Shown: piece by piece, positions 690 through 43,079 of the stretch | Layout of the letters: each line of letters starts with the position of its first letter | Numbering within the stretch: the stretch's first letter is position 1 | DNA from: Mytilus edulis | Taxonomy: Eukaryota | Reading direction: 5' to 3' | Assembly: GCF_963676685.1 (NCBI RefSeq) | Contig: NC_092357.1 | Coordinates: 9,362,001 to 9,426,000, forward strand | Length of the DNA stretch: 64,000 nt | The notes under the pieces: model-generated | What the model was told of the DNA's origin: nothing | Database searches by the model: none | Seen by the model: the letters and a program-made list of their open reading frames with translations, nothing else | Program-made: the position numbers and the translations under genes

Positions 690-1563
690 TAAATAAGAAC
701 AATGTCTATTTATTCACACATGTCTTTAATGTCGAACAATGACCACGGTCATCTGTATTGAAACATAAAACATTATTAGCAATAATAGGCACAGTTCAGA
801 CCATAGTTATAAGTAGCCAATGTACATAGGCAATTATAACCCTCTATCTCCCCTTAAGTTTTTGGTTCGTAATGTTCCATTAAAGGTGGCAAATACTTGT
901 ACACTGTAATATGCCTAGGAGACAGCGAACTGAAATCACAAATAACAATTAAAAAAGGTTTCATTTAGTCTTAAACAAAACACAGGACTGGTGTTGACAA
1001 TACTTTTACCTACCCCATTCAACATACCAGAAAACAAATGACCATGGAGGAGTGTTGGTGGTCGGCTGTGTTCCTTGGTTCTCAAGTGGCGTTTCTGTGA
1101 ATTCCAAACGACGGCGCTCAGGATGTGTGTTATCAACTCTAGGACTTTTGAATGAAGAAAGTCCTGTCTTGGGCGTTTCCAGAATATGAAGTTTTTGCTC
1201 GATAGGCAAATATTGTGAATCGGTGAATTCTGGTGTAGAGCTGTCCTTGGAGTCTGAAGTTGTCTGACCAAGTGGATAATTCTTTTCACGAGTAGAATCT
1301 TTAGGGGTTTCCATTAATGTATCAGAAGTCGGTTGTAGTACGTGTTTGGTGTTGAATGATGACGGGACAGGTACATTCTTATAACAAAGGACCGTGGTCA
1401 TAAATAAGAACAATGTCTATTTATTCACAGTGACACATGTCTTTAATGTCGAACAATGACCACGGTCATCTGTAATGAAACATAAAACATTATTAGCAAT
1501 AATAGGCACAGTTCAGTCCATAGTTATAAGTAGCAAATGTACATAGGCAATTATAACCCTCTA
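690..1563 (-). mobile_element. Miniature non-autonomous LTR-like element (TRIM-like) inserted in the satellite
   Basis: Direct repeats 690-846 and 1401-1563; ACTTG duplicated at 685-689 and 1564-1568; minus-strand purine tract AAGGGGAGA (855-847) abutting the 3' repeat; minus-strand AATAAA in each repeat (1425-1420, 714-709). Termini are TA..TA, not TG..CA. Confidence 0.7.
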
Positions 1564-3310
1564 ACTTGACATTTCAGTATAACAATATCTGTCACATGAC
1601 ATTTTAGTATAACAATATCTGTCACATGACATTTTAGTATAACAATATCTGTCACATGACATTTCAGTATAACAATACCTGTCACATGACATTTCAGTAT
1701 AACAATACCTGTCATTTGACATTTCAGTATAACAATACCTGTCACATGACATTTCAGTATAACAATACCTGTCACATGACATTTCAGTATAACAATACCT
1801 GTCATTTGACATTTCAGTATAACAATACCTGTCACATGACATTTCAGTATAACAATACCTGTCACATGACATTTCAGTATAACAATACCTGTCACATGAC
1901 ATTTCAGTATAACAATACCTGTCATTTGACATTTCAGTATAACAATACCTGTCATTTGACATTTCAGTTTAACGATACTTGTCACATGAAATTTTAGAAT
2001 AACGATACCTGTCACTTCGAATTTCAGTATACCAATACCTGTCACTTGACATTTCAGTTTAACAATACCTGTCACTTCACATTTCAGTATACCAATACCT
2101 GCTAATACCTGTCACTTCACATTTGAGTATAACAATTCCTGTTACATAACATTTCAGCATAGCAATACCTGTCACATGACATTTCAGTGTAACAATACCT
2201 GTCACATTATATTTCAGTTTTACAATACCTGTCACATGACATTTCAGTATAACAATACCTGTCACATGACATTTCAGTAAAACAATACCTGTAACATGAC
2301 ATTTCAGTTTAACGATACCTGTCACTTGACATTTCAGTATAACAATACCTTTCACATTACTTTTCAGTATAACAATACCTGTAACATGACATTTCAGTTT
2401 AACGATACTTGTCAATTGACATTTCAGTATAACAATACCTGTCACTTGACATTTAAGTATAACGATACCTGTCACTTGACATTTCAGAATAACAATACCT
2501 GTCACTTGACATTTCAGTATAACAATACCTGTCACTTGACATTTCAGTATAACAATACCTGTCACATGACATTTCAGTATAACAATACCTGCCACATTAC
2601 ATTTCAGTATAACAATACCTGTCACTTGACATTTAAGTATAACAATGCCTGCCACATTACATTTCAGTATAACGATACCTGTCACATGACATTTCAGTAT
2701 AACAATACCTGTCACATTACATTTCAGTATAACAATACCTATCACATTATATTTCAGTATAACAATACCTGTCACTTGACATTTCAGTATAACAATACCT
2801 GTCACTTGACATTTCAGTATAACAATACCTGTCACATTACATTTCAGTATAACAATACCTGTCACATGATATTTCAGTATAACAATACCTGTCATATTAC
2901 ATTTCAGTATAACGATACCTGTCACTTGACATTTCAGTATAACAATACCTGTCACATGACATTTCAGTATAACAATACCTGTCACATTACATTTCAGTAT
3001 AACAATACCTGTAACTTGAAATTTCAGTATAACAATACCTGTCACATGACATTTCAGTATAACAATACCTGTCACTTGACATTTCAGTATAACAATACCT
3101 GTCACATGACATTTCAGTATAACGATACCTGTCACATTACATTTCAGTATAAAAATACCTGTCACATTACATTTCAGTATAAAAATACCTGTCACATTAC
3201 ATTTCAGTATAACAATTCCTGTCACATGACATTTCAGTATAACAATACCTGTCACATGACATTTCAGTAAAACAATACCTGTCACATGACATTTCAGTAT
3301 AACAATACCT

Positions 3311-3701: not shown

Positions 3702-4282
3702 GGTAAATGACATTTCAGTATAACAAAAACCTGGTTAATGACATTTCAGTATAACAATACCTGTCACATGACATTTCAATATAACAATACCTGTCACTTG
3801 ACATTTCAGAATAACAATACCTGTCACATGACATTTTAGTATAACAATACCTGTCACATTACATTTCAGTATAACAATACCTGTCACATGACATTTCAGT
3901 AAAACAATACCTGTCACATGACATTTTAGTATAACAATACCTGTCACATTACATTTCAGTATAACAATACCTGTCACATGACATTTCAGTAAAACAATAC
4001 CTGTCACATTACATTTCAGTATAACAAAAACCTGGTTAATGACATTTCAGTACAACAATACCTGTCACTTGACATTTTAGTATAACAATACCTGTCACAT
4101 GACATTATAGTAAAACAATACCTGTCACTTGACATTTCAGTATAAAAATTCCTGACACGTGTCTTCTCAGTATAACAATAGTTCAGGCACAAGATATTTC
4201 AGTAAACAATTCCTGTCACATCGAAAAACCAATTGTTGCTACCAGAATTTTCACATGTACCTTTTCTGATATATAGTCTTAT

Positions 4283-4463: not shown

Positions 4464-4807
4464 ATTAGATTAATAGTTTCAAGTTGATGCGAACACAGCT
4501 TGTTATTCAATTTACCGTAACAAACAAAATAAACCTATTTTGGACGGACGGACGGCAGCACAGGCCAGAAAACATTATGCCCACTACTGTAGGCGGGACA
4601 GAGAAATCCTAGTCACAAATGAAAGAATGACAAAAGAATGACTAATTCTATTTGAGACTGATATTCAGACGATCCACAATAACAACTATTCCAATTTCAA
4701 TGATTCAATAACAAAATATATGATAAGGACATCAACTGTCAAAGCTAGGCATTCAATATTTTTATAGACGAAAAATGAAAAAAGCGTTTCGTTTCGCTTC
4801 GCCATGT

Positions 4808-4839
<32 letters not shown>

Positions 4840-5089
4840 CGTTCTGTTTTTAAACAGAAAGTCACCTCTGACGCACACTTTGACTAGGGAGCTCTAATGT
4901 TCGGTGATTTTATATGCTGATCTAGGTTGTTTAACGTATTCGTTTTTATTTCTGTAGTTATTCGATTCACTTCGGTGTTGACATGTATATTAATTATATG
5001 GTTATTTTTATAAATTTACTGTTTGCAAAAGTATGAATTATTCTAAATACTAAGGAAATATATATATATATATATTTTTATCCCAGACA

Positions 5090-5293
5090 GATAAACTAAG
5101 CCGTATTTGGCACACTTTTTTGGAATTTTGGGTCATCAAAACTCTTTATCTTGTTTTGGGGCCAGTTGAAGCATGCCTCCGGGTGTGGGATTTTCTCGTT
5201 GTATTGAAGACTCATTGGTGGCTTCGGCTGTTTTCTGCTTTTTGGTAAGGTTGTTGTCGCTTTGACACATTCCCCATTTCCGATTAACATTTT
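5090..5293 (+). mobile_element. Retroposon family B fragment
   Basis: Similar to 62120-62258; tail GACACATTCCCCATTTCC. Confidence 0.7.
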
Positions 5294-5762
5294 AATGAGT
5301 ATTTATAAATATTTGATTGATTGTATATCTGACCTATATTAATTGTACACATTTCACATTATCGACACTAGTAATTATACCGTTTCGTACGGTTAAGTTC
5401 AACGAACAACAAATGCATTATAAATATGATAATATTTCTGAAATACCATCCAATAACGTAAGCATTGCCTTAATTAAGAAATATTCGAAACACTGTGTAT
5501 TTTGTGGAAGATCATATCCAACCAAGAAGAAAACTTATATATGGAAGTATTTGAAATCACTAATTAAATTGTCAGCTAGTTATTTAGATTGTACGTTTGA
5601 TTTTGAGATTTACAAAAAGTTTCTTTTATACGATTTAAAAATGATACGAGAAAATGCACACAAAAAAGTCTGATGCACGAATAACTGATCAGCTTCTGAG
5701 CACCTATAGGTTGTCCGTCTTTTAGTAAGGGAAAGGATTGCCGATTGATGTCTTATCAACAA

Positions 5763-9263: not shown

Positions 9264-10449
9264 TAAACAAGGATTTTGTATGTGAAACTAGTAGTGTCTC
9301 ATTGGCAGTCATCCTATATCGTCTTCTTTTAAATTGATTGTTGCTCGCCATGCAGTATTGTATCATCTTGTATGGATCGATACAATAGGCTGTCCTTGTA
9401 CTTGTGGTGTATGTATTTGCTACTTTTATGATGTTTTTTTTTCTGGTATCTGTTGGAGAGTTGTCACATCTTCTAACTTTAGTTTCCTTATATTTCTTAT
9501 TTACAGGTCGTAGCCTTGTGAGAGAGCATTATATTTCTCTAGATTTCGTATGTTGGATAGTTGCCTCATTGTCAAATAGATCACACTTCCCTAGTATTAA
9601 ATATAAATTTACGCTTTGTTTGACTTACATAGTCTTACTACAACATTATACAAAGGTTAACAGGATCATTTACAAGCAAGGATCCGTGTTAAAGACCGTA
9701 CATTGACTTATAATGGTTTACTTTTATAAATTGTGACTTGGATGGAGAGTTGTCTCATTGGCAGTCATACCACATCTTCTTATATCTATATACATACTGG
9801 GAATTCACTGACAAACTACTTTAAGAAATGTAAACTCAGAGGCCTGTTATGGTGACCAAAATAAATGAAACTTGTCGTTGAAGTCAAACACAGCATAAAT
9901 TCATCGCAATCTAGAACTTTACAATGCATCTTACATGGAGGTTACACGTCTAGTTGTTTTGAACAAAACTGACATTTTTTAGTGTTAATTAAATTAGTGT
10001 GAAGGCAAAGAGTTGTTGCTAGTTGCTACGGTTTTTACAGAGAGCCTGTCACTCTCTATACTCATTGGCAGATCCAATTTTTCTATAAGGGATGATCCAC
10101 TGACTGACCTAAAGGGGCGTGCTCCAGTCATGCTTCGGTGATTCCCTCAAAAAGGGGGGGCTGGACCCTCAGCCCACTGGAACCACCTATGATAATTTAC
10201 GACTACAAGAATCATCAGACAACAAGTCCCCATTCTGCCCGGACGTGGGTGCTTTCTTATACATCCCGCAAAACCAAACCGAAGCCCCATTCTAGTGACG
10301 GCTTTATTGCCGGTCGGCAAAATTATATTTTAAATATGGAATCGTTGCATCGTCTTAAAGTCTCTCATACAGACTGGGTTCGTCTGACCTCGAAGTCATT
10401 TCATAGATAAGTGTTCAACTTATCTTATGTATGTTGTTTGATGTATTTA

Positions 10450-11440
10450 TATACTTGTGTGAAACATCTAGATACATCGTGTGGTGTATCTATATACGTG
10501 TGCGAAGCATCTAGACGGTTGTGTGATGTATCTAGATATTTGTGTGAAGTATTTATATGGTTGTGTGATGTATCTTAGACAAGGTAAATGTGTGAATCTT
10601 CTTGATACGTGTGTGAAGCATGTAAATGGTTGTGTGATGTATCTAGATATGTGTGTGGTGTATCTAGATACTGGTGTGAAGCATCTAGATGGTTGTGTGA
10701 TGTATCTAGATACTGTTGTGAAGCATCAAAATGGTTGTGTGATGTATCTAGATACTGGTGTGAAGCATCTAGATGGTTGTGTGGTGTATCTAGATAATTA
10801 TGTGAATCTTCTTGATACGTGTGTGAAGCATGTAAATTGTTGTACGATGTATCTAGATACTTGTTCGAAGCATCTAGATGGTTATATGATGTATCCAGAT
10901 ATGTGTGTGATGTATCTAGATACTTGTGCGAAGCATCTAATGTATGGTTTTGCGGTGTATCTAATGAGGGCCCTCATGGGGTTTTTGATTATGTGATTAC
11001 TTGGCCGTTTTTTTAATGATTATTTGATTATTAAGCCAAATATTTCATGATTATTTGATTACCTAGGACTGTATTTTTAGTTTATGATTATTTGATTACT
11101 AAAGATAAGCAAATATTTAATGATTATGTGATTATATTGGCAAAAAAATGGTGATTATGTGATTACTAGGACCCCCCCATGAGGGGCCTCTCTAATTACT
11201 TGTACGAAGCATCTAGATACTTGTGTGAAGCATCTAGATGGTTGTTTGGTGTATCTAGTTACTTGTGTGAAGCATGATGTATATTGATACTTGAGTAAAG
11301 CATTTAGATGGTTGTGCGGTGTATCTAGATACTTGTGTAAAGCATTTAGATAGTTGTGTGGTTTATCTAGATACTTGTATAAAGCATCTAGATGGTTATG
11401 CAATGAATCTAGATACTTGTTCGAAGCATCTAGATATTCG
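10450..11440. repeat. Minisatellite, about 42-bp unit (two 21-bp halves, TGTATCTAGATACTTGTGTGAAGCATCTAGATGGTTGTGTGA)
   Basis: Repeated TCTAGA-containing units, interrupted by a MITE at 10966-11190. Confidence 0.9.
10966..11190. mobile_element. MITE with GAG..CTC termini and 6-bp TSD
   Basis: TIR GAGGGCCCTCATGGGG / CCCCATGAGGGGCCTC; TCTAAT at 10960-10965 and 11191-11196; internal (GATTATNT)n. Confidence 0.85.
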
Positions 11441-28319: not shown

Positions 28320-30012
28320 CAAAAGGGAGATTACATCAATAGATATAAACAATTCACCAGAGTTTCATGAGAATTGCTGAAAGCATTTTTGAGTTATTGT
28401 CTGAAAACTGGAAAATGCCCCCGTTTTTAATGAATAAAACCCCATAACTTAGATATGTAAAATCATAAATTTATAAAATTCTAAAAGGAGCTTACATCAA
28501 TAGATGGAAACAGGTCACCAAAATTTCTTGCTAGTTGGTGAAAGCATTCTTGCGTTATTGTCTGAAAACTGGGAAAAAAACCCCTTTTTTATGAATACAA
28601 GAGAGCACACACTGAAATGTCTCGCCTTCTTTACTAATCATTGATATTATGTTGATAGTCCTAAGTATAAAGCTTTATTACAACGGTACATAAACTTAAC
28701 ATTAACCAAGATAGCTAAACAAAGACCAATGAACCATGAAAATGAGGTCAAGGTCAGATGAACCATGCCAGGCAGACATGTACAGCTAACAAAGCTTTCA
28801 TACAACAAATATAGTTGACCTATTACTTATAGTTTAAGAAAAATAGACCAAAACGCAAAAACTTAACACTGTGCAATGAACCGTGCAATTGAGGTCATGG
28901 TCAAATAAAACCTGCGGGACTGACATATAGATCATAATATATTTCCATACACCAAATATAGTTGCCCTTTGGCATATTATATTAGATAAAAAGACCAAAA
29001 CTTAAAAACTTAACATTGACCACTGAACCATGAAAATGAGGTCAAGGTCAGATGACATCTGCCTGCTAGACATGAACACCTTACAATCATTCCATACAAC
29101 AAATATAGTAGACCTATTGCATAAAGTATGAGAAAAACAGACCAAAACACAAAAACTTAACTATAACCACTGAACCATGCAAATGAGGTCAAGGTCAGAT
29201 GACACCTGCCAGTTGGACATGTACACCTTCCAGTCCTTCCATACACCAAATATACTAGCCCTATTGCTTATAGCATCTGAGATATGGACTTGACCACCAA
29301 AACTTAACCTTGTTCACTGATCCATGAAATGAGGTCGAGGTCAAGTGAAAACTGTCTGACGGACATGAGGACCTTGCAAGGTATGCACATACCAAATATA
29401 GTTATCCTATTACTTATAATAAGAGAGAATTCAACATTACAAAAATTCTTAACTTTTTTTCCAAGTGGTCACTGAACCATGAAAATGAGGTCAAGGACAT
29501 TGGACATGTGACTGACGGAAACTTCGTAACATGAGGCATCTATATACAAAGTATGAAGCATCCAGGTCTTTCACCTTCTAAAATATAAACCTTTTAAAAA
29601 GTTAGCTAACGCCGCCGCCAAATCACTATCCCTATGTTGAGTTTTCTGCAACAAAGTTGCAGGCTCGACAAAAAGCTTCTATTAACTCAGAATTTATAAA
29701 AATAGAAAGGGAGCTCATGTCAATAAATATAATTAATTCACCAAAATTTCTTGCAAGTTGCTGAAAGCATTCTTCGATTTATTGTCCCAAAACTGGAAAA
29801 TCCCCTTTTTTTAAAATGAATAAAACCCACAACTGGGGAACATAAAACCTAAAATTTGGAAAAAATTAAAATGAAATCACGCCAATAGATATAAACAATT
29901 CACCAAACTTTTATACAAATTGGTTAAAGTGTTTTAGAGAAAATGTCCGACATGTTGACAACAGATGGACATACAGACAACCATAACACGTCCTGTAAAC
30001 AGGCTTATAAAA
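28320..30012 (-). mobile_element. HINE with internal repeats of about 160-170 bp, split by a nested HINE
   Basis: Units containing ATAGATATAAACAATTCACCA / CTGAAAACTGGAAAA at about 28340, 28500, 29725 and 29885; end with GGAC/AGAC-like repeat and TATAAAA. Confidence 0.7.
28597..29674 (-). mobile_element. Nested HINE carrying about 6 tandem units of about 147 bp
   Basis: TGAACCATGAAAATGAGGTCAAGG at about 28731, 28877, 29024, 29171, 29319 and 29473; (GCC)n and end TTGCAGGCTCGACAAAA. Confidence 0.8.
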
Positions 30013-32848: not shown

Positions 32849-35800
32849 TTACTCCTTCTTTTTTTCCTGTAAAGAGAAAAAATAATCACTCGTTAAATTT
32901 GAATTGAAATTGTAGAGTTCTATAAAAACACAGCAGATTGAGAGAAGAATTCAGATTCTCAACTATTGGTGGATGTCAAGTACTTATTGTGCCCCACATA
33001 GGGCCTTATGATTTTCAGTCCATCCCGACTCGGATTCTTAAAGTGTTTGGTTAAGGTAGTTTTTGATGAAGTTGAAGGCCAATCAACTTGATACTTAGTA
33101 CACATATTCCCTATGATATGATCTTTCTTAATAGGAGTTTTGACCCCCAATTTCACAGTCCACTGAAAATAGTCATAGTTGTTCACTCTCATAAATATCA
33201 TTCAATTTCATGTGGTCCTAAGTAACAACCCAATATTTTGTTCAGTTAAGTATTGTAAAGGACTCATAGCCGATTTTTTAATAATAAGTCTAAGTTGTCT
33301 AACGGCATTAACAGCGTTTTATCAGTTTTAATTCTTTGGTCAAAGAACATTTTGAAATCTTTGAAAACATGATAGGCCACAAAATAAATCCATGAAACTG
33401 TGTCACTAAAATATTACTGCTATAACTCTATGCACAAAAGCGGTAATTAAACCTAAACAATTTTGAATCTATCTAGTGATGTCAGTCTTTGCCAAACTGT
33501 AATAGGGTTTGTCTAACCGCAAAAGAAATTTGAAATTAATTGCTATATATTAAACCAAAAAATCCATTAAAATTCTGTCTGACCGAACGATATTTTGTCG
33601 GACATTTTGTCAAACAGACAGAGTTTGGGATACACTGTGATGTAAGACATTATCTTTTTGAACTGGCTAATTATTTTACTAACTTACCTTTTTGCCTAAG
33701 ATGATCATCAGTTTACGGAAGATGTTGATGAAGTCCAGGAACAAATCCACACTATGCCTGCAATAACAATAGGTTTAGAAATGTTATTTGATTTTACTTA
33801 CCATGCTTACAAAATGTTTAGAAATATTATTTGCAGTTCATTATCTTTTTAAAATTTAACAATGTATGTAATTTTGACCCAATGATTGATGGATTGTTGC
33901 TTGCTTAACATTTAGGATGAATATTCTGATCTTTCATCAGTTACTGTACTTTCAATATGATTTTATATGTAACACTATATGTCTACAGTCTTTATCTTAA
34001 GTGTGTATTGTTTTTTATTCATCTTCATTGGCTATATTTACCGTCAAATCCACATGTCTTAGGATGCCATTTTGAAATGCTCCAATTCTCAATGGCTCCA
34101 TTAATACAATATAATCTTAAATTTAACTGAAGTAACCTCAAAAATGCTGTTTCAATCAGTTTTAACCCTTTTCCATGGATATTTTTTTTTTAAAATACTT
34201 GATTCGCATAGGATTATTAAAAAAAAAATCAAAAAATCATCAGGTTTAAAGTATTGATGCATTGCGAAAAACGATTATTTCAACAATGAAATCCCAGTCA
34301 AAGATTCTCATGAATATCCTTTTTTTATATAAGATACAAATTTTTTAAGTCTGATAAAGTTTTTTCGTAGGTGAGACGTTTCAACTGAGTCACTACACAG
34401 GCATTAAAAGGAGTCATTATGGAGTAAAGGGCCAAAAGGCGTCATTATGGAGTAAAGGGCCAAAAGGCGTCATTATGGAGAAAAGGGTTTACCCTGATCT
34501 GAATCATACCAAATAAATAAACTTTCTTGTCATTTTTTTCATTTGTATGACAATACAGTTGTATGTTTTGCCATGATGTTTTTGCACAAAATCATTCATG
34601 ACATTTTACAGAATTTTATTTCATTTTCAAATAATACATTATTAAAAGCAATTATGTACAATTTTCTTTTGTAATGCTTTTGTGACTTTCTAATTGGCAA
34701 CAGAAAGTTTTCAACTAGTAACTTCAGTACTGGTAATCCATTAAGTTTATGTAGTGGTGCACTGATTATCTGAACCATCCATTAATTGGTTAATCTTGGT
34801 TACTTGGTTCGTTGATTGGTTTGAAGTGTGTACTGATTTCTATTTTGGCCTATATAGTACTGAGCCTCGAGGTCTGTTTTAATATACATGATACCAAGGG
34901 AAGGCATATACCTACATCTCAAATGTACTTTACATACATTTCACAGGGCCTTCCCTGGATATCATGCACATTGTAAGTGTAAATTGACAGATGTTAGAAA
35001 CATTGTTTGTTCTTTTTAAATAAGATTTTAATTAAATAATAATTTACCAGATAAAGTCATCGTCTCCATTACGTTTTTTCTCAACAATAAGTTGTGTGTC
35101 GTACAGGACAAAGGCACAGAAAATCAATAATCCAGCATGGAGGTATAACTAAAAATAGAAAAAAACCAAGATAAAATCTACAAATATGACTATTGGATAA
35201 TTGTACAGCATAATTCCAATATAACTTGTTTTTAATCTGTAATTTTTTACATCTATTTTCAAGTTTTGCCAAGGCTTTCAAGGTCTTACACAACACCTGC
35301 ACATGGAGATGTATTTTAAAATTTCAACCAGAATCTAAACAAAATTTGTGGTACAATGAGAGGTAAATATAATGTCCGACTCCCATTATAACATGTATAA
35401 ATGTTTAATACATGTACAAAATGTACATGCATGACATGTAGAAGTACTTATCTAAATACAGTCATAATATCAATTTCTGTGTCATTTTGGTCTTTTTGTA
35501 ATTGTAAATTTTACCACATCTTCTAAGCCACCAATTCCCTCTAGTAACATGGCAAGATTTGAGTAAATTATTGATATAACTACTAAGACAATTCAGACAA
35601 AGCAGCCCCGTGATAACATGTTAAGATCTGAGTAAATTATTGATATAACAAACTTACATCCCAAATCATCTGAGACACTGAACCCCCTCATAACATGGTA
35701 AGATCTGAGTAAATTATTGATATAACAAACTTACATCCCAAATCATCTGAGACACTGAACCCCCTCATAACATGGTAAGATCTGAGTAAATTATTGATAT

Positions 35801-38800
35801 AACAAAATTACATCCCAAATCATCTGAGACACTGAACCCCCTCATAACATGTTAAGATCTGAGTAAATTATTGATATAACAAACTTACATCCCAAATCAT
35901 CTGAGACACTGAACCCCCTCATAACATGGTAAGATCTGAGTAAATTATTGATATAACAAACTTACATCCCAAATCATCTGAGACACTGAACCCCCTCATA
36001 ACATGGTAAGATCTGAGTAAATTATTGATATAACAAACTTACATCCCAAATCATCTGAGACACTGAACCCCCTCATAACATGGTAAGATCTTAGTAAATT
36101 ATTGATATAACAAACTTACATCCCAAATCATCTGAGACTGGAAGAAAATGTTCATGAATCCCAACAGCATCAACCAACTAAGTCCAGACATCAGAAACCC
36201 TGAAAAATACAGTTTCACGCTCACTATGATTATCTGAACATACAGTGATTTTAAATGCACTTCATATAACATATTTAATTAAATTTCTCTAAATAAAATG
36301 CAAACTATTGCAAGTTCATAGGAGTTTTCTTTCTTTTTTAACTACCTGCGAGTAAAGTTTGACAGCAATATTTGTTGAAATTATTCGCTGATGTATGTAT
36401 CGTCATGATCATGTACATCATTGAACATGTGTATGATGTGTATGGACAATGTGAATGCAATTTACAATTACACATTATTACATGTATGACTTCTAGATCT
36501 AGAGTGGGTGTCTAATAAAGTTAAGATATTATATACAGAAAAGCTAAACACATTTATGCCTTATAAGATTTCTTTGCATTTTTGTTTTCAACAAATGATC
36601 AAATCTTTTCATCTAAATTATCTGTAAACCAACAACTTTCCAAATGTATCTTCAGACTTAAATGCTAACAGAATATCTGTACTTACCACCCATGTATAAA
36701 AAGGTTCTATCTGTGTTGTATAATGCAGCCAAAGAAAAACTGACAAAAATCACAGTAGTGGCCATAAAGGCTGTTGCTATTATGCTGAAAATAAAACATA
36801 AACAATATTAATATTAATATCAAGATGAGGTGAACTCATGTGCGATTCTTTATAATGGATTTACTGGTAATCATATGAAAACTTAAATTATTTTTTAATC
36901 TGGTGGATTCAATGGCTGACTATTAAAGCAGTGTGAGTTTAGGTCATTGTTGAAGGAGATACTGTGACATAAGTTGTCTCATTGGATGTCATCAATGACT
37001 TACAATGAACATTGTTAGTGACCTAAGGTTGCTTACATGAACATCAATAGATTTTAGAGGATATTTGTCTCATTCAGTGTTCTCCCCAGAATTTTCAAAT
37101 AACAACTTGGAAATTAACATTGCACTGGTTTTCCAAAAAAATATACTACCATGGACCCTATATATATTCTATAATAACATCATCCAAGATAGCACCAGGG
37201 TACGATGGTGCTTGAAGGCCCTGGGGAGAACACTGTGACATTGGAAGTCATATTACATCTCTCTATTTTTATACTAAGTTGTTTAACTGTAACATGCTGG
37301 TCAAATAGGCTAAAGTCTGAAGGAAGACATTTCATCCGTGTTAGATGGTTTTTCTGACCTTGAGCAGATCAATCTTTGCTCCTACTTCTCTTTGCCTAAG
37401 GGAGAACCAGCAAATGCTAATTTTAAAGTCTTTTACTTTGACCAGCTAGGAATTGAACAAACAACCTTCTACACATGTACAATGTACATGTGCACAATTT
37501 GTCACATGTACAAAATGTACTTAATTCAACCTTAAAAATTACTTAAACCATTATAACAGCAAAATTATAATTCTTATGCAATTAAACATGTACATGTAAC
37601 CATTGTAACACCAATTTTGATTGCAGAGGTCTTTCATTGATCATTTTGATACTAGGTTGATAGTCAAGTTATTGACAACAACATGGCACAATTGCAGTCA
37701 CTGTACATGGTTTATTTTACAGTATACTCATGTACTCAAAATGATTACATTTGTAATTTTGAAAATTTTAAGGATTGCATTAGAAATGAAATTTCACTAC
37801 TGTAGCAAAATAGTTGCCACTGCCAATAATTGGTAAATTTAGATTTGACAGGCTCTGCCTCATGTCTACAGTAAAATGGCATTAATAACTGCCAAATCCC
37901 TGATTGATAGTAGCAACTCTTCTAATACTGTACTGTTATTTTTAAACAACATAACGATGTACATTTATTATTCTAACCTGGGATCAATGTCTATAACCCA
38001 ATCCATGACTGGACCAAGTGACATTCCACTGAAAAAAGTAAAACCTGTAAAGATGGCCATTCTCTTCATCTGTGTCTCTTTTGAGTGATGTGTCATTGCC
38101 AACCATATCATTAGTCCAATGGAGGCTATCGAGGTGAGGAAACTGTGCTGCAAGTAGTAATGAAAAATATAATCTCATGTACATGTATGATGTGTGAGTG
38201 CCAACAGATGCGTACAAAATGGTCAGTCTTGAAACAGGAGCCTAAAACTACATTGTACAAAATGTTGTATGTCCTACTGGTTTTGCTAATTGCTAATTAC
38301 TGAAGGTCATTAAATTTATAGTTGCCAACTTCTACTGATGAGAATACTGTTAAGTATTCCACATTCCAAACTAAAAGACAAATTGAAAGAGTTGATATTA
38401 CTTTGCTTCATAAAAAAGAATGGCCAACGTAGATACAAGTATCTTGTCTTAGGGAGGGATAAATCCTACTTTGTAAAGAATCACTCTGATTCAAACAAAA
38501 AATTCTCTGAAACTGATATTATCAAGATGCTTGATTTCTTGATTGACAACATATTTGTTACGTTCGGAGGACGTGTTTTTCAACAGACTGTCGGCATTCC
38601 AATGGGAACAAACTGTGCCCCTCTACTCGCCGACTTGTTTCTTTATTATTATGAGGCTGACTTCATGCAGGAACTTCTTAGGAAGAAAGATAAGAAGTTA
38701 GCAATATCCTTTAACTCTACTTTCCGCTATATAGATGATGTTCTTTCACTAAACAATTCAAAATTTGGTGACTATGTGGAACGCATCTATCCAATCGAAC

Positions 38801-41442: not shown

Positions 41443-41714
41443 GAGAGGGAGGACAGGGGTAAGGGAGACAGGGAGAAAGAGGGTAGGAGAAAGGAGAAAG
41501 GGGGTGGGAGAAAGGAGAAAGGGGGTAGGAGAAAGGAGAGGAAGGCTGGGAGAAAGGAGAAAAAATAAAATATCTCTCCTTTTAAATTTTTTTCTAATAT
41601 TTCAAGAAAAAATATCTCAAAAGGAGATGTTTTATTCTAATGGGAGAAAGGAGAACGGTGGTAGGAGAAAGGAGAAGAGGGGTGGGAGAAGGGTACCCCC
41701 CTGTCCTCCCCCTC
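41443..41714. mobile_element. MITE with GAG..CTC termini and 6-bp TSD, upstream of BI-1
   Basis: TIR GAGAGGGAGGACAGGGG / CCCCTGTCCTCCCCCTC; AATTAT at 41437-41442 and 41715-41720; internal (GGAGAAA)n. Confidence 0.85.
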
Positions 41715-42129
41715 AATTATAACTCACTTAATTTCTAGAGACTCATCATTTTTTTACCTGTGAAAAGGGGGAAAGGGGAGGTGGGGGGGGGGGGAGAGAG
41801 ATGCTGGTCATTTTTAAATCAAACCTATAAAATTTCTTGACCCAACTACAATATTTCACTTATTTGATTTGACCCCCCAAGTATAAACATTTAAAAAAAA
41901 TTGACAACCCCCTATTTACCGGTATTTCAATAAAAACGTACTTTCTTGTCCCAGCCACTTTAAAAAAAAAATGTGTTTGATTTTTGCAAGTATTTTTTTG
42001 TGCTGTCAGTACATTGAATCCGATTTAACATTTTTAAGCAAAGAAGCAGTTTATTTTTTAGAGGGATTGATAAGATATTGATTCCTGAATGGTCCAAAAC
42101 AACCAAAATGACATGTACCTAGACCGCCT

Positions 42130-43079
42130 CCCAGATAGCAATACTTTGTTGGGCCAACATTGGTGATTGGTTGGCACAGTTGGTAAATAGTTGGCGTTGG
42201 CAGCACAACAAGAAACCGACGTTGGCCCAACAAAACTCAGCCAACAGTTATTTTGACACTATTGGCCCCTTGTTGGCCCAACAAAACTCAGCCAACAGTT
42301 ATTTTGACTCTATTGGCCCCTTGTTGGCCCAACGACTTTCCACCAACTGTCATTTTGGTGTTATTGGCCCAATGTTGGCCCAACATTTTCTTACCAACTG
42401 TTATTTGTACGTATTATACCACAGATTTTTTTTAATTTTTTTTAGATATTATTTCAAAGTGCAAACCAAAAAATGTGCTCCTCATTCTCTTTATCTAATA
42501 TTTTCAAATCCGTGTAGTCATTTAAATGTATTTATCTTAATGATTGAATAATTTTATGCACAAACAAAAAATACTTAAAACCAGCCCCAAAAAACAAATA
42601 AAATTTGAATATAGTTTCTGCAAGTTGTTAAAATAATCAACTGAACTCAGTTGCTCATTTGACACGAGTGTAATATCACACTCTCCACATGACAGCCGAG
42701 ATTGACTTGCCAATATAATATACATTACATGCTAGAGATAAATATTTCATAATACATAACATAAAATGCATGAAAGACATGTTTGCCATACTGAAGCCAT
42801 CGTTGGCATACTGCTGTTCGACCAACATTGGTCCAACATAATTTTAAAACAAGACGACGTTGGTAGACTGTTGGCAAAAAGTTGACATTGTTGGCAGATT
42901 GTTGGCAAATAGTTAACCTTGTTGGCATACTGATGTTGGGCCAACAAAGACCCAACATGTTGGGCCAACTGAAGGCCGATGAGCAAAATGACGTTGGCCC
43001 AACATAGTTTTCCAACATTGGCCCAACAATGTTGCCAACAGAATGCCAATGTTGGCCCAACACATGTTTGCTATCTGGG
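42130..43079. mobile_element. CMC/EnSpm-like non-autonomous transposon
   Basis: TIR CCCAGATAGCAA / TTGCTATCTGGG; 2-bp TSD CT; many subterminal GTTGGCCCAAC repeats at both ends. Confidence 0.85.

Follow-up and report, generated by a model that had tools for sequence, protein, structure and literature searches.

The 874-bp insert and its parent family

The window, the whole 64,000-nucleotide stretch of DNA analysed here, contains 30-bp satellite arrays at 402 to 686, 1567 to 3310 and 3707 to 4221, and an 874-bp insert (690 to 1563) lies within one satellite unit. The insert is flanked by ACTTG on the left (685 to 689) and on the right (1564 to 1568), and this is a true 5-bp target site duplication (TSD) because the surrounding 30-bp unit supplies the empty site. 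The 5' LTR (1401 to 1563, minus strand, 163 bp), delimited by repeat alignment and family comparison, has TA at its start and end. The 3' LTR (690 to 846, minus strand, 157 bp) also ends in TA and is 95.5% identical to the LTR of the full-length copy L031. Three substitutions and one 6-nt gap separate the two LTRs, and each holds an AATAAA. The one at 1420 to 1425 (minus strand) lies 19 nt from the end of its LTR and is predicted to act as a poly(A) signal; the other is at 714 to 709. A polypurine tract adjoins the 3' LTR (847 to 855, minus strand), and a tract ending in GGAGA precedes the 3' LTR throughout the clade. The earlier note had outlined the insert, its 157- and 163-bp repeats, the duplication, the purine tract and AATAAA, and each of these was confirmed in place. 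Its statement that the 11 nt past the 5' LTR are the exact complement of 1467 to 1457 and do not start with TGG also held.

Inside the LTR lies a splice acceptor (1470 to 1497, minus strand) made up of an AG at 1471 to 1470, a U-rich tract and a candidate branch point at 1497 to 1492; host exons are joined exactly here in L040, in the window copy and in a contig from the public run X17. The 13 nt directly past the acceptor (1457 to 1469, minus strand) form the self-primer site, identified as complementary to the PBS by sequence, folding and clade comparison.

The rest of the insert is a patchwork. Next to the 5' LTR is the 11-nt primer-site sequence (PBS; 1390 to 1400, minus strand), complementary to the LTR site, with an LTR-matching base at position 10 that is absent in copies continuing into gag. 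The 3' end of pol follows (1046 to 1390, minus strand), a tail past the integrase core that is 93% identical to L031 at parent positions 4665-5009 and includes the end of its 1640-codon frame; the match stops at 1046. Then come a second, partial primer copy (1038 to 1045, minus strand) and a captured exon of 127 nt (911 to 1037, plus strand), antisense to the element and 94% identical to its source repeat. Read on the plus strand, the exon is followed by ATGACCAT, which equals the first 8 nt past the LTR acceptor with one G>A change. BLAST to L031 identified the remainder as the 3' untranslated end of the parent, from element position 5171 (856 to 920, minus strand), and where it overlaps the captured exon the two have about 10 nt of microhomology in common. 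Compared with L031, the window copy consists of positions 1-166, 4665-5009 and 5171-5403.

The autonomous gag-pol partner sought by the earlier note exists as a 5.4-kb LTR family (family A). Searching the 1.37-Gb assembly with the element gave at least 51 DNA matches, and 40 of 72 candidates were scored. Family A comprises nine two-LTR copies and three solo LTRs, all with the proposed TA..TA termini and with different 5-bp duplications; the longer copies measure 4.5-6.0 kb, and LTR pairs range from about 90 to 100% identity. In L031 a single frame of 1640 codons encodes RT, RNase H and integrase, arranged as in Gypsy elements (Pfam), and the RT motif is CVDD. The order in the parent family is gag, protease, RT, RNase H, integrase, with the protease placed by a DTG motif (P0001 has no protease Pfam match), and the best solved-structure match of the polyprotein is Ty3 Gag-Pol (E 9.8e-38). 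In the RT search, family A matched at 94-100%, degraded relatives at about 80% and family C at 63-66%, followed by matches at no more than 35% apart from short fragments. Family B loci (L051-L053 and L062; RT 77-84%) have no LTR pair and so permit no primer-site comparison. Family C is recent, since several of its copies have identical LTRs and frames of 1,590-1,640 codons.

The earlier note had read the insert as a TRIM. Its dimensions agree with that class, as it is shorter than 1 kb and has terminal direct repeats within 100-250 bp, a polypurine tract and a TSD. In place of a tRNA-complementary PBS it has the complement of its own LTR, with no TGG. A TRIM family that amplifies independently and has a structure of its own is conceivable insofar as a copy of under 1 kb with two LTRs, a primer site, a purine tract and a TSD could in principle be mobilised in trans. 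However, the window junctions are unique among at least 51 matches and 17 LTR-bearing junctions (lower bounds), and the interior is a pol remnant plus a captured exon, so we consider such a family very unlikely. No other copy was found with the window junctions among these matches, and the insert is therefore a one-off derivative, a deletion and capture product of an autonomous family. Compared by description, the bivalve TRIMs reported in PMC6934838 are likewise short two-repeat elements of a bivalve-like genome with no canonical PBS. In the account consulted, however, they form multi-copy families and no mechanism is proposed for them, whereas the window copy is a single derivative of an autonomous family.

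How distinctive is the wider clade? We found 2,289 homologous proteins at E <= 1e-30, some of which may be Gypsy proteins from further afield, and the named close homologues come from scallop, mussel, snail, sea urchin and anemones. A quick RT-RNase H tree, which held clade members and 18 Gypsy controls from the same genome and no named reference elements, placed 27 clade members on one branch (100%), far from the controls, with an unsure root. Motif searches for clade members in two published supplements gave none. No chromodomain was present in 11 of 11 full-length polyproteins or in the precomputed domains of the 120 homologues listed, and the zinc knuckles and integrase tail have what we take to be a Mag-like look. 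The clade is large, yet it would escape filters that ask for TG..CA ends and a tRNA PBS.

The termini of the parent family are TA..TA rather than TG..CA, as established by TSD and self-alignment. AtRE1 is a plant Copia element. This Arabidopsis element has TA..TA termini as well, and as described it shares only these terminal dinucleotides with the clade (bioRxiv 10.1101/137141). Identity with Troyka or Kuafuorterviruses was rejected because the ends, TSD length and RT motif differ. As portrayed in PMC12440569 and PMC11673190, those lineages are similar in being LTR elements of aquatic animals, 5-6 kb long, with non-canonical ends and RT motif, but they have CG..CG ends, a 3-bp TSD and IADD, VADD or LADD, whereas the elements studied here have TA..TA, a 5-bp TSD and CVDD.

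Primer sites and their complements in the LTR

The match between PBS and LTR extends well beyond the window. From 110 loci, 32 elements were bounded by a TSD under a filter that asked for TA ends, and self-alignments made without that filter show the same TA..TA ends. In 28 of the 32, the 9-16 nt past the LTR complement a stretch of the same element's LTR that lies 47-73 nt short of the LTR's end; the four bounded elements without a match are attributed to mutation or wrong bounds. The PBS begins directly past the LTR's terminal TA. A metagenome set of 80 loci (20 without upstream sequence and 4 without TATG) left 56 that could be scored, and 36 of these reach a self-match of at least 9 nt while 20 do not, compared with 0 of 226 control TATG sites in pol. 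Control Gypsy families were drawn from the same genome as 20 loci; an RT match was lacking in 2, an LTR pair in 5 and a resolved TSD in 5. Of the 8 bounded elements that remain, 7 have TGG no more than 2 nt from the LTR, and self-matches reach at most 7 nt.

We compared 27 distinct primer sites, picked for matching at least 9 nt. Each pairs with its own LTR over 9-17 nt, while cross-family pairing occurs in only 6 of 702 pairs, all between near-identical sites. The earlier note had cautioned that its LTR site is a near-palindrome, which would make such complementarity easier to obtain. That caveat is fair for the window family and fails for the clade, since same-sense matches span only 2-7 nt across the 27 sites and palindromy is therefore not the cause of the complementarity. 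Co-variation, which the note had suggested looking for, is seen as single-base changes common to LTR site and PBS in L078/L089 and L120/L124. The paired stretch ends in CA, followed by U/T, in 27 of 27 sites. With a T after each of the 27 LTR sites, the duplex could gain one pair with the LTR's last A, and the cut may follow CA or CAU.

Within the window, the 11-mer occurs three times, once in each LTR and once at the PBS, whereas shuffles predict 0.27 and reach 2 at most. The region from the LTR end to the PBS folds with z = -3.69, and 0 of 200 shuffles were equally stable. As judged from sequence, self-priming is strongly supported across the clade, which carries the proposal beyond the single copy from which it was first made, and the primer is very likely self-derived. 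The competing view is that a tRNA or tRNA half primes, that the LTR match is a structural hairpin and that captured exons arise via template switching or repair. Half-tRNA priming does exist in Copia lineages, according to the part of PMC6317226 consulted. Against this, none of the 27 primer sites starts with TGG, and each tracks its own LTR rather than a fixed RNA. The window has no tRNA genes; a genome-wide tRNA search returned 62 matches that are near-identical tandem copies from three places only, and it is unfit as a full tRNA screen.

Junctions between LTR and PBS reveal a further regularity. Among 17 such junctions in family A, position 10 of the PBS mismatches the LTR site in all 11 that continue into gag, and this mismatch is the genomic state of the family. 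In the 6 junctions that do not enter gag, position 10 follows the LTR site; 5 of these are independent, with L041/L042 taken once and L040 bearing a 1-nt deletion (0/11 vs 5/5, Fisher p = 2.3e-4). L045, which the junction pattern missed, likewise follows the LTR site. The 11-nt match of the window copy thus differs from the family's genomic PBS, which matches over 9 nt; the most plausible reading is that it was copied from the primer. Family C has 18 junctions, of which 12 lead into gag after a match of 10-11 nt (the second base is mutated in one of them); in the other 6 the match extends to exactly 15 or 10 nt before giving way to foreign sequence. These end points fall at a YAG that follows a tract rich in pyrimidines. 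Aberrant junctions make up about one third of the total (6 of 18 in family C and 6 of 17 in family A).

Host exons at the LTR splice acceptor

What lies beyond the primer copy? In 7 of 12 independent aberrant insertions, the window copy included, the primer copy reaches exactly to the acceptor and is followed by one or more host exons in antisense. By tally, 7 of the 12 were traced exactly to a splice donor, 1 nearly so (L041/L042, with 4 extra bases at the joint) and none to a non-donor. For the other 4 (L045, L049, L307 and L251), no source of the captured piece was found elsewhere. L040 holds four exons of one C3 gene, antisense and joined without introns, each flanked by AG..GT in the genome; the last ends before GTAAAT there and adjoins the first base past the LTR acceptor. 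It is one of two multi-exon intron-less captures, the other being the two exons of L246. The captures in L246, L253, L239 and L245 are 99-100% identical to unique loci on other contigs (exon 1 of L246, 93%), and that in L238 is 84-86% identical to paralogues. The source loci of all five end at GTAAGT, GTAAGG or GTATGG. The L253 exon (G000:C1:39872314-39872402) may resemble the start of a copine.

The exon in the window copy (911 to 1037) has its source in a multi-copy repeat (L207-L211, e.g. G000:C7:59782700-59792600) that is young and at least 7 kb long, and a GTAAGA donor stands at its end in 5 of 5 source loci read. The exon has an ATG at its start and the donor at its end. Copies of the repeat are 92-99% alike and contain no open frame of 150 codons.

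Calculated from window base counts, the chance of such donor ends is 2.5e-8 for three family-A ends and 1.2e-5 for the five of family C once GTA is taken as given. In family C the donor's GTA recurs at the joint, so template switching could contribute, but positions +4 and +5 agree with a donor as well. At the X17 joint there are no shared letters. This 57-nt contig consists of 27 nt of a host exon ending before GTAAGT and 30 nt of LTR from base 95; it is the uncleaved exon-LTR form, from a source that is not on record as RNA. The public runs all consist of contigs and none is on record as RNA; four of them compared with the whole element gave nothing at the acceptor except one X16 contig ending 7 nt upstream, and contig breaks at 5567/5596 in X5 and X6 are a weak hint.

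These captures are unlike the products of ordinary sense-strand transduction, because they lie in antisense, have been spliced and directly adjoin the complement of the bases past the acceptor. The same properties tell against priming by a tRNA or tRNA half, which is largely refuted and in our view extremely unlikely. Two other sources of the joined sequence were rejected. Spliced-leader RNA as the splice partner does not fit, as the joined exons all differ; nor, for families A and C, does an intron within the LTR, as the traced upstream partners are foreign. We conclude that spliced chimeras of host exon and element very probably do prime.

The chimera could also act in trans, if host exons were trans-spliced, or if gene-trap transcripts of solo LTRs or intronic copies annealed to the PBS of a co-packaged RNA. 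At 6 of 6 source loci checked in this assembly (50-124 kb each), no element lies downstream, where simple splicing in cis would call for one in the donor individual, and these loci include the sources of three very young captures at 99-100% identity. Solo LTRs of family A, moreover, keep both acceptor and primer site. However, intronic sense copies would be gene traps and presumably rare alleles, so absence from one assembly is expected under splicing in cis too, and the primer site and PBS fold well in cis. We consider a primer in trans improbable.

Tf1-type self-priming is a further alternative. Here the element would have its own initiator at the CAG, its capped 5' end would pair with the PBS, and splicing would be incidental, yielding just aberrant copies. 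Fifteen related families (a subset of L074-L150) have a 13-16-nt match that mostly starts from or beside the A of a YCAGTT-like motif, with a loop of 67-74 nt and often a GCATGC-type motif upstream; the match in L139 starts at an A without an AG there. The captures, moreover, all sit in aberrant or defective copies and may represent a side route. Families A and C speak against this reading, since their extended primer copies stop at the acceptor and not at the A of CAG, and the bases beyond vary from copy to copy. Of 9 acceptor-type families, 8 show no PBS match extending across the AG. Family C has only 39 nt upstream of its acceptor, and TACTAAT, a pyrimidine tract and CAG take up this space. 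A one-third share of aberrant junctions is also high for a side reaction. For families A and C we hold an initiator of this kind to be doubtful, and we lean slightly towards splicing as the usual source of the primer.

The 15 initiator-like families form one branch (SH-aLRT 96). It is nested among acceptor-type families in what looks like a switch from one type to the other. A strict YTRAY branch-point motif is absent in several acceptor-type families, and the AG is missing from its expected position in L092, L094 and L104.

A model for priming and its precedents

The usual expectation is that an LTR element has its promoter in U3 and is primed by a tRNA or, within the Tf1 group, by the 5' end of its own transcript. 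We read the 874-bp insert as one copy, in rearranged form, of the 5.4-kb gag-pol family, and consider it likely that RNA spliced to host exons, instead of a tRNA, primes reverse transcription in that family. In the first step, which the captured sequences record directly, host exons are joined to LTR base 95, directly past the acceptor AG. The next 9-13 nt, complementary to the PBS, would then pair with it. By analogy with Tf1, RNase H would cut past the paired stretch and release a primer of one or more host exons plus 10-15 element bases. This primer would remain on the minus strand (that of Tf1 is reportedly not removed), and plus-strand synthesis from the purine tract would copy first the LTR and next the primer. 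Any such overshoot would be trimmed or ignored in normal copies, which would keep the genomic PBS.

The aberrant copies would arise when synthesis enters the exons and the unpaired end jumps to a wrong place, often by microhomology. The product would be an LTR, a primer copy, antisense exons and a 3' remnant, which is the form seen at roughly one in three of the LTR-PBS junctions identified. Three jumps would account for the window copy: from the primer to pol, back to primer and exon, and then to the 3' end. The Tf1 analogy drawn by the earlier note thus survives with regard to self-priming. The transcript start it expected near 1467 would need revision, as the element part of the priming RNA would begin at 1469, after the acceptor, with host exons upstream.

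The closest precedent is Tf1/sushi. As far as described in PMC7175516, PMC4600332 and PMC6317226, Tf1/Tf2 of Schizosaccharomyces pombe, Tj1 and Tf1/sushi elements likewise have no tRNA PBS, have a post-LTR sequence that complements their own LTR and follow the Gypsy order. The Tf1 RNase H cut is placed between transcript bases 11 and 12, freeing the primer (PMC7175516, in the part available). Self-priming had already been predicted for Tf1/sushi, Tcn1 and plant TAR elements, by the account in PMC6317226. The clade differs in its TA..TA ends, against TG..CA in the Tf1 group, in its CVDD motif and in its 11 polyproteins free of a chromodomain. In families A and C, furthermore, the primer sequence follows a splice acceptor and carries host exons, unlike in Tf1. 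By analogy the clade would work like Tf1, which does not amount to membership in the Tf1 group.

A second precedent is SVA-F1, which gained MAST2 sequence by splicing and, like the elements described here, acquired a host exon in its RNA via an acceptor in the element (PMC3287187, as far as consulted). SVA-F1 is a non-LTR element and carries a sense exon as cargo in that description (PMC3287187), whereas here the exons are antisense, come from many independent events and probably belong to primers. Our literature search, with Repbase, GyDB, subscription journals, the original Tf1 papers and Troyka data outside it and possibly holding one, found no description of the clade or of host-exon priming. 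Priming by RNA spliced to host exons is the best-supported new addition.

The U3/R border of these elements acts as a splice acceptor, and host exons come to sit on what is probably the primer. Should this prove the usual route, it would constitute a new mode of LTR-element expression and priming and a new way to capture exons in antisense, via the primer. The aberrant copies are in addition genomic fossils of the primer, whose equivalent in Tf1 took bench work to obtain. In the broadest reading, a widespread marine-invertebrate lineage exchanged its LTR promoter for a 3' splice site, came to be expressed as a natural gene trap through cis- or trans-splicing and to prime on the host-exon chimera, routinely scattered host 5' exons in antisense and, in a nested subgroup, returned to Tf1-like initiator priming. 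We give this scenario an even chance.

Several individual copies illustrate the variety of products. In L049 (303-537), an LTR is followed by a 13-nt primer copy, 38 foreign nt and the LTR's first 26 nt inverted, with a 5-bp duplication on both sides; by its sequence, this aberrant copy was integrated with two U3 ends. L245 of family C (G000:C6, near 30150295), 414 bp long with an identical LTR pair and a 5-bp duplication, is another one-off that resembles a TRIM and owes its form to exon capture. L041/L042 and L216 represent one 235-bp aberrant insertion, later duplicated on C11, for which a paralogous empty site exists. The window itself contains further tandem repeats at 10433-11420, 28724-29343, 35613-36138 and 41463-42406, with units of 21/42, 147, 77 and 51 bp, respectively.
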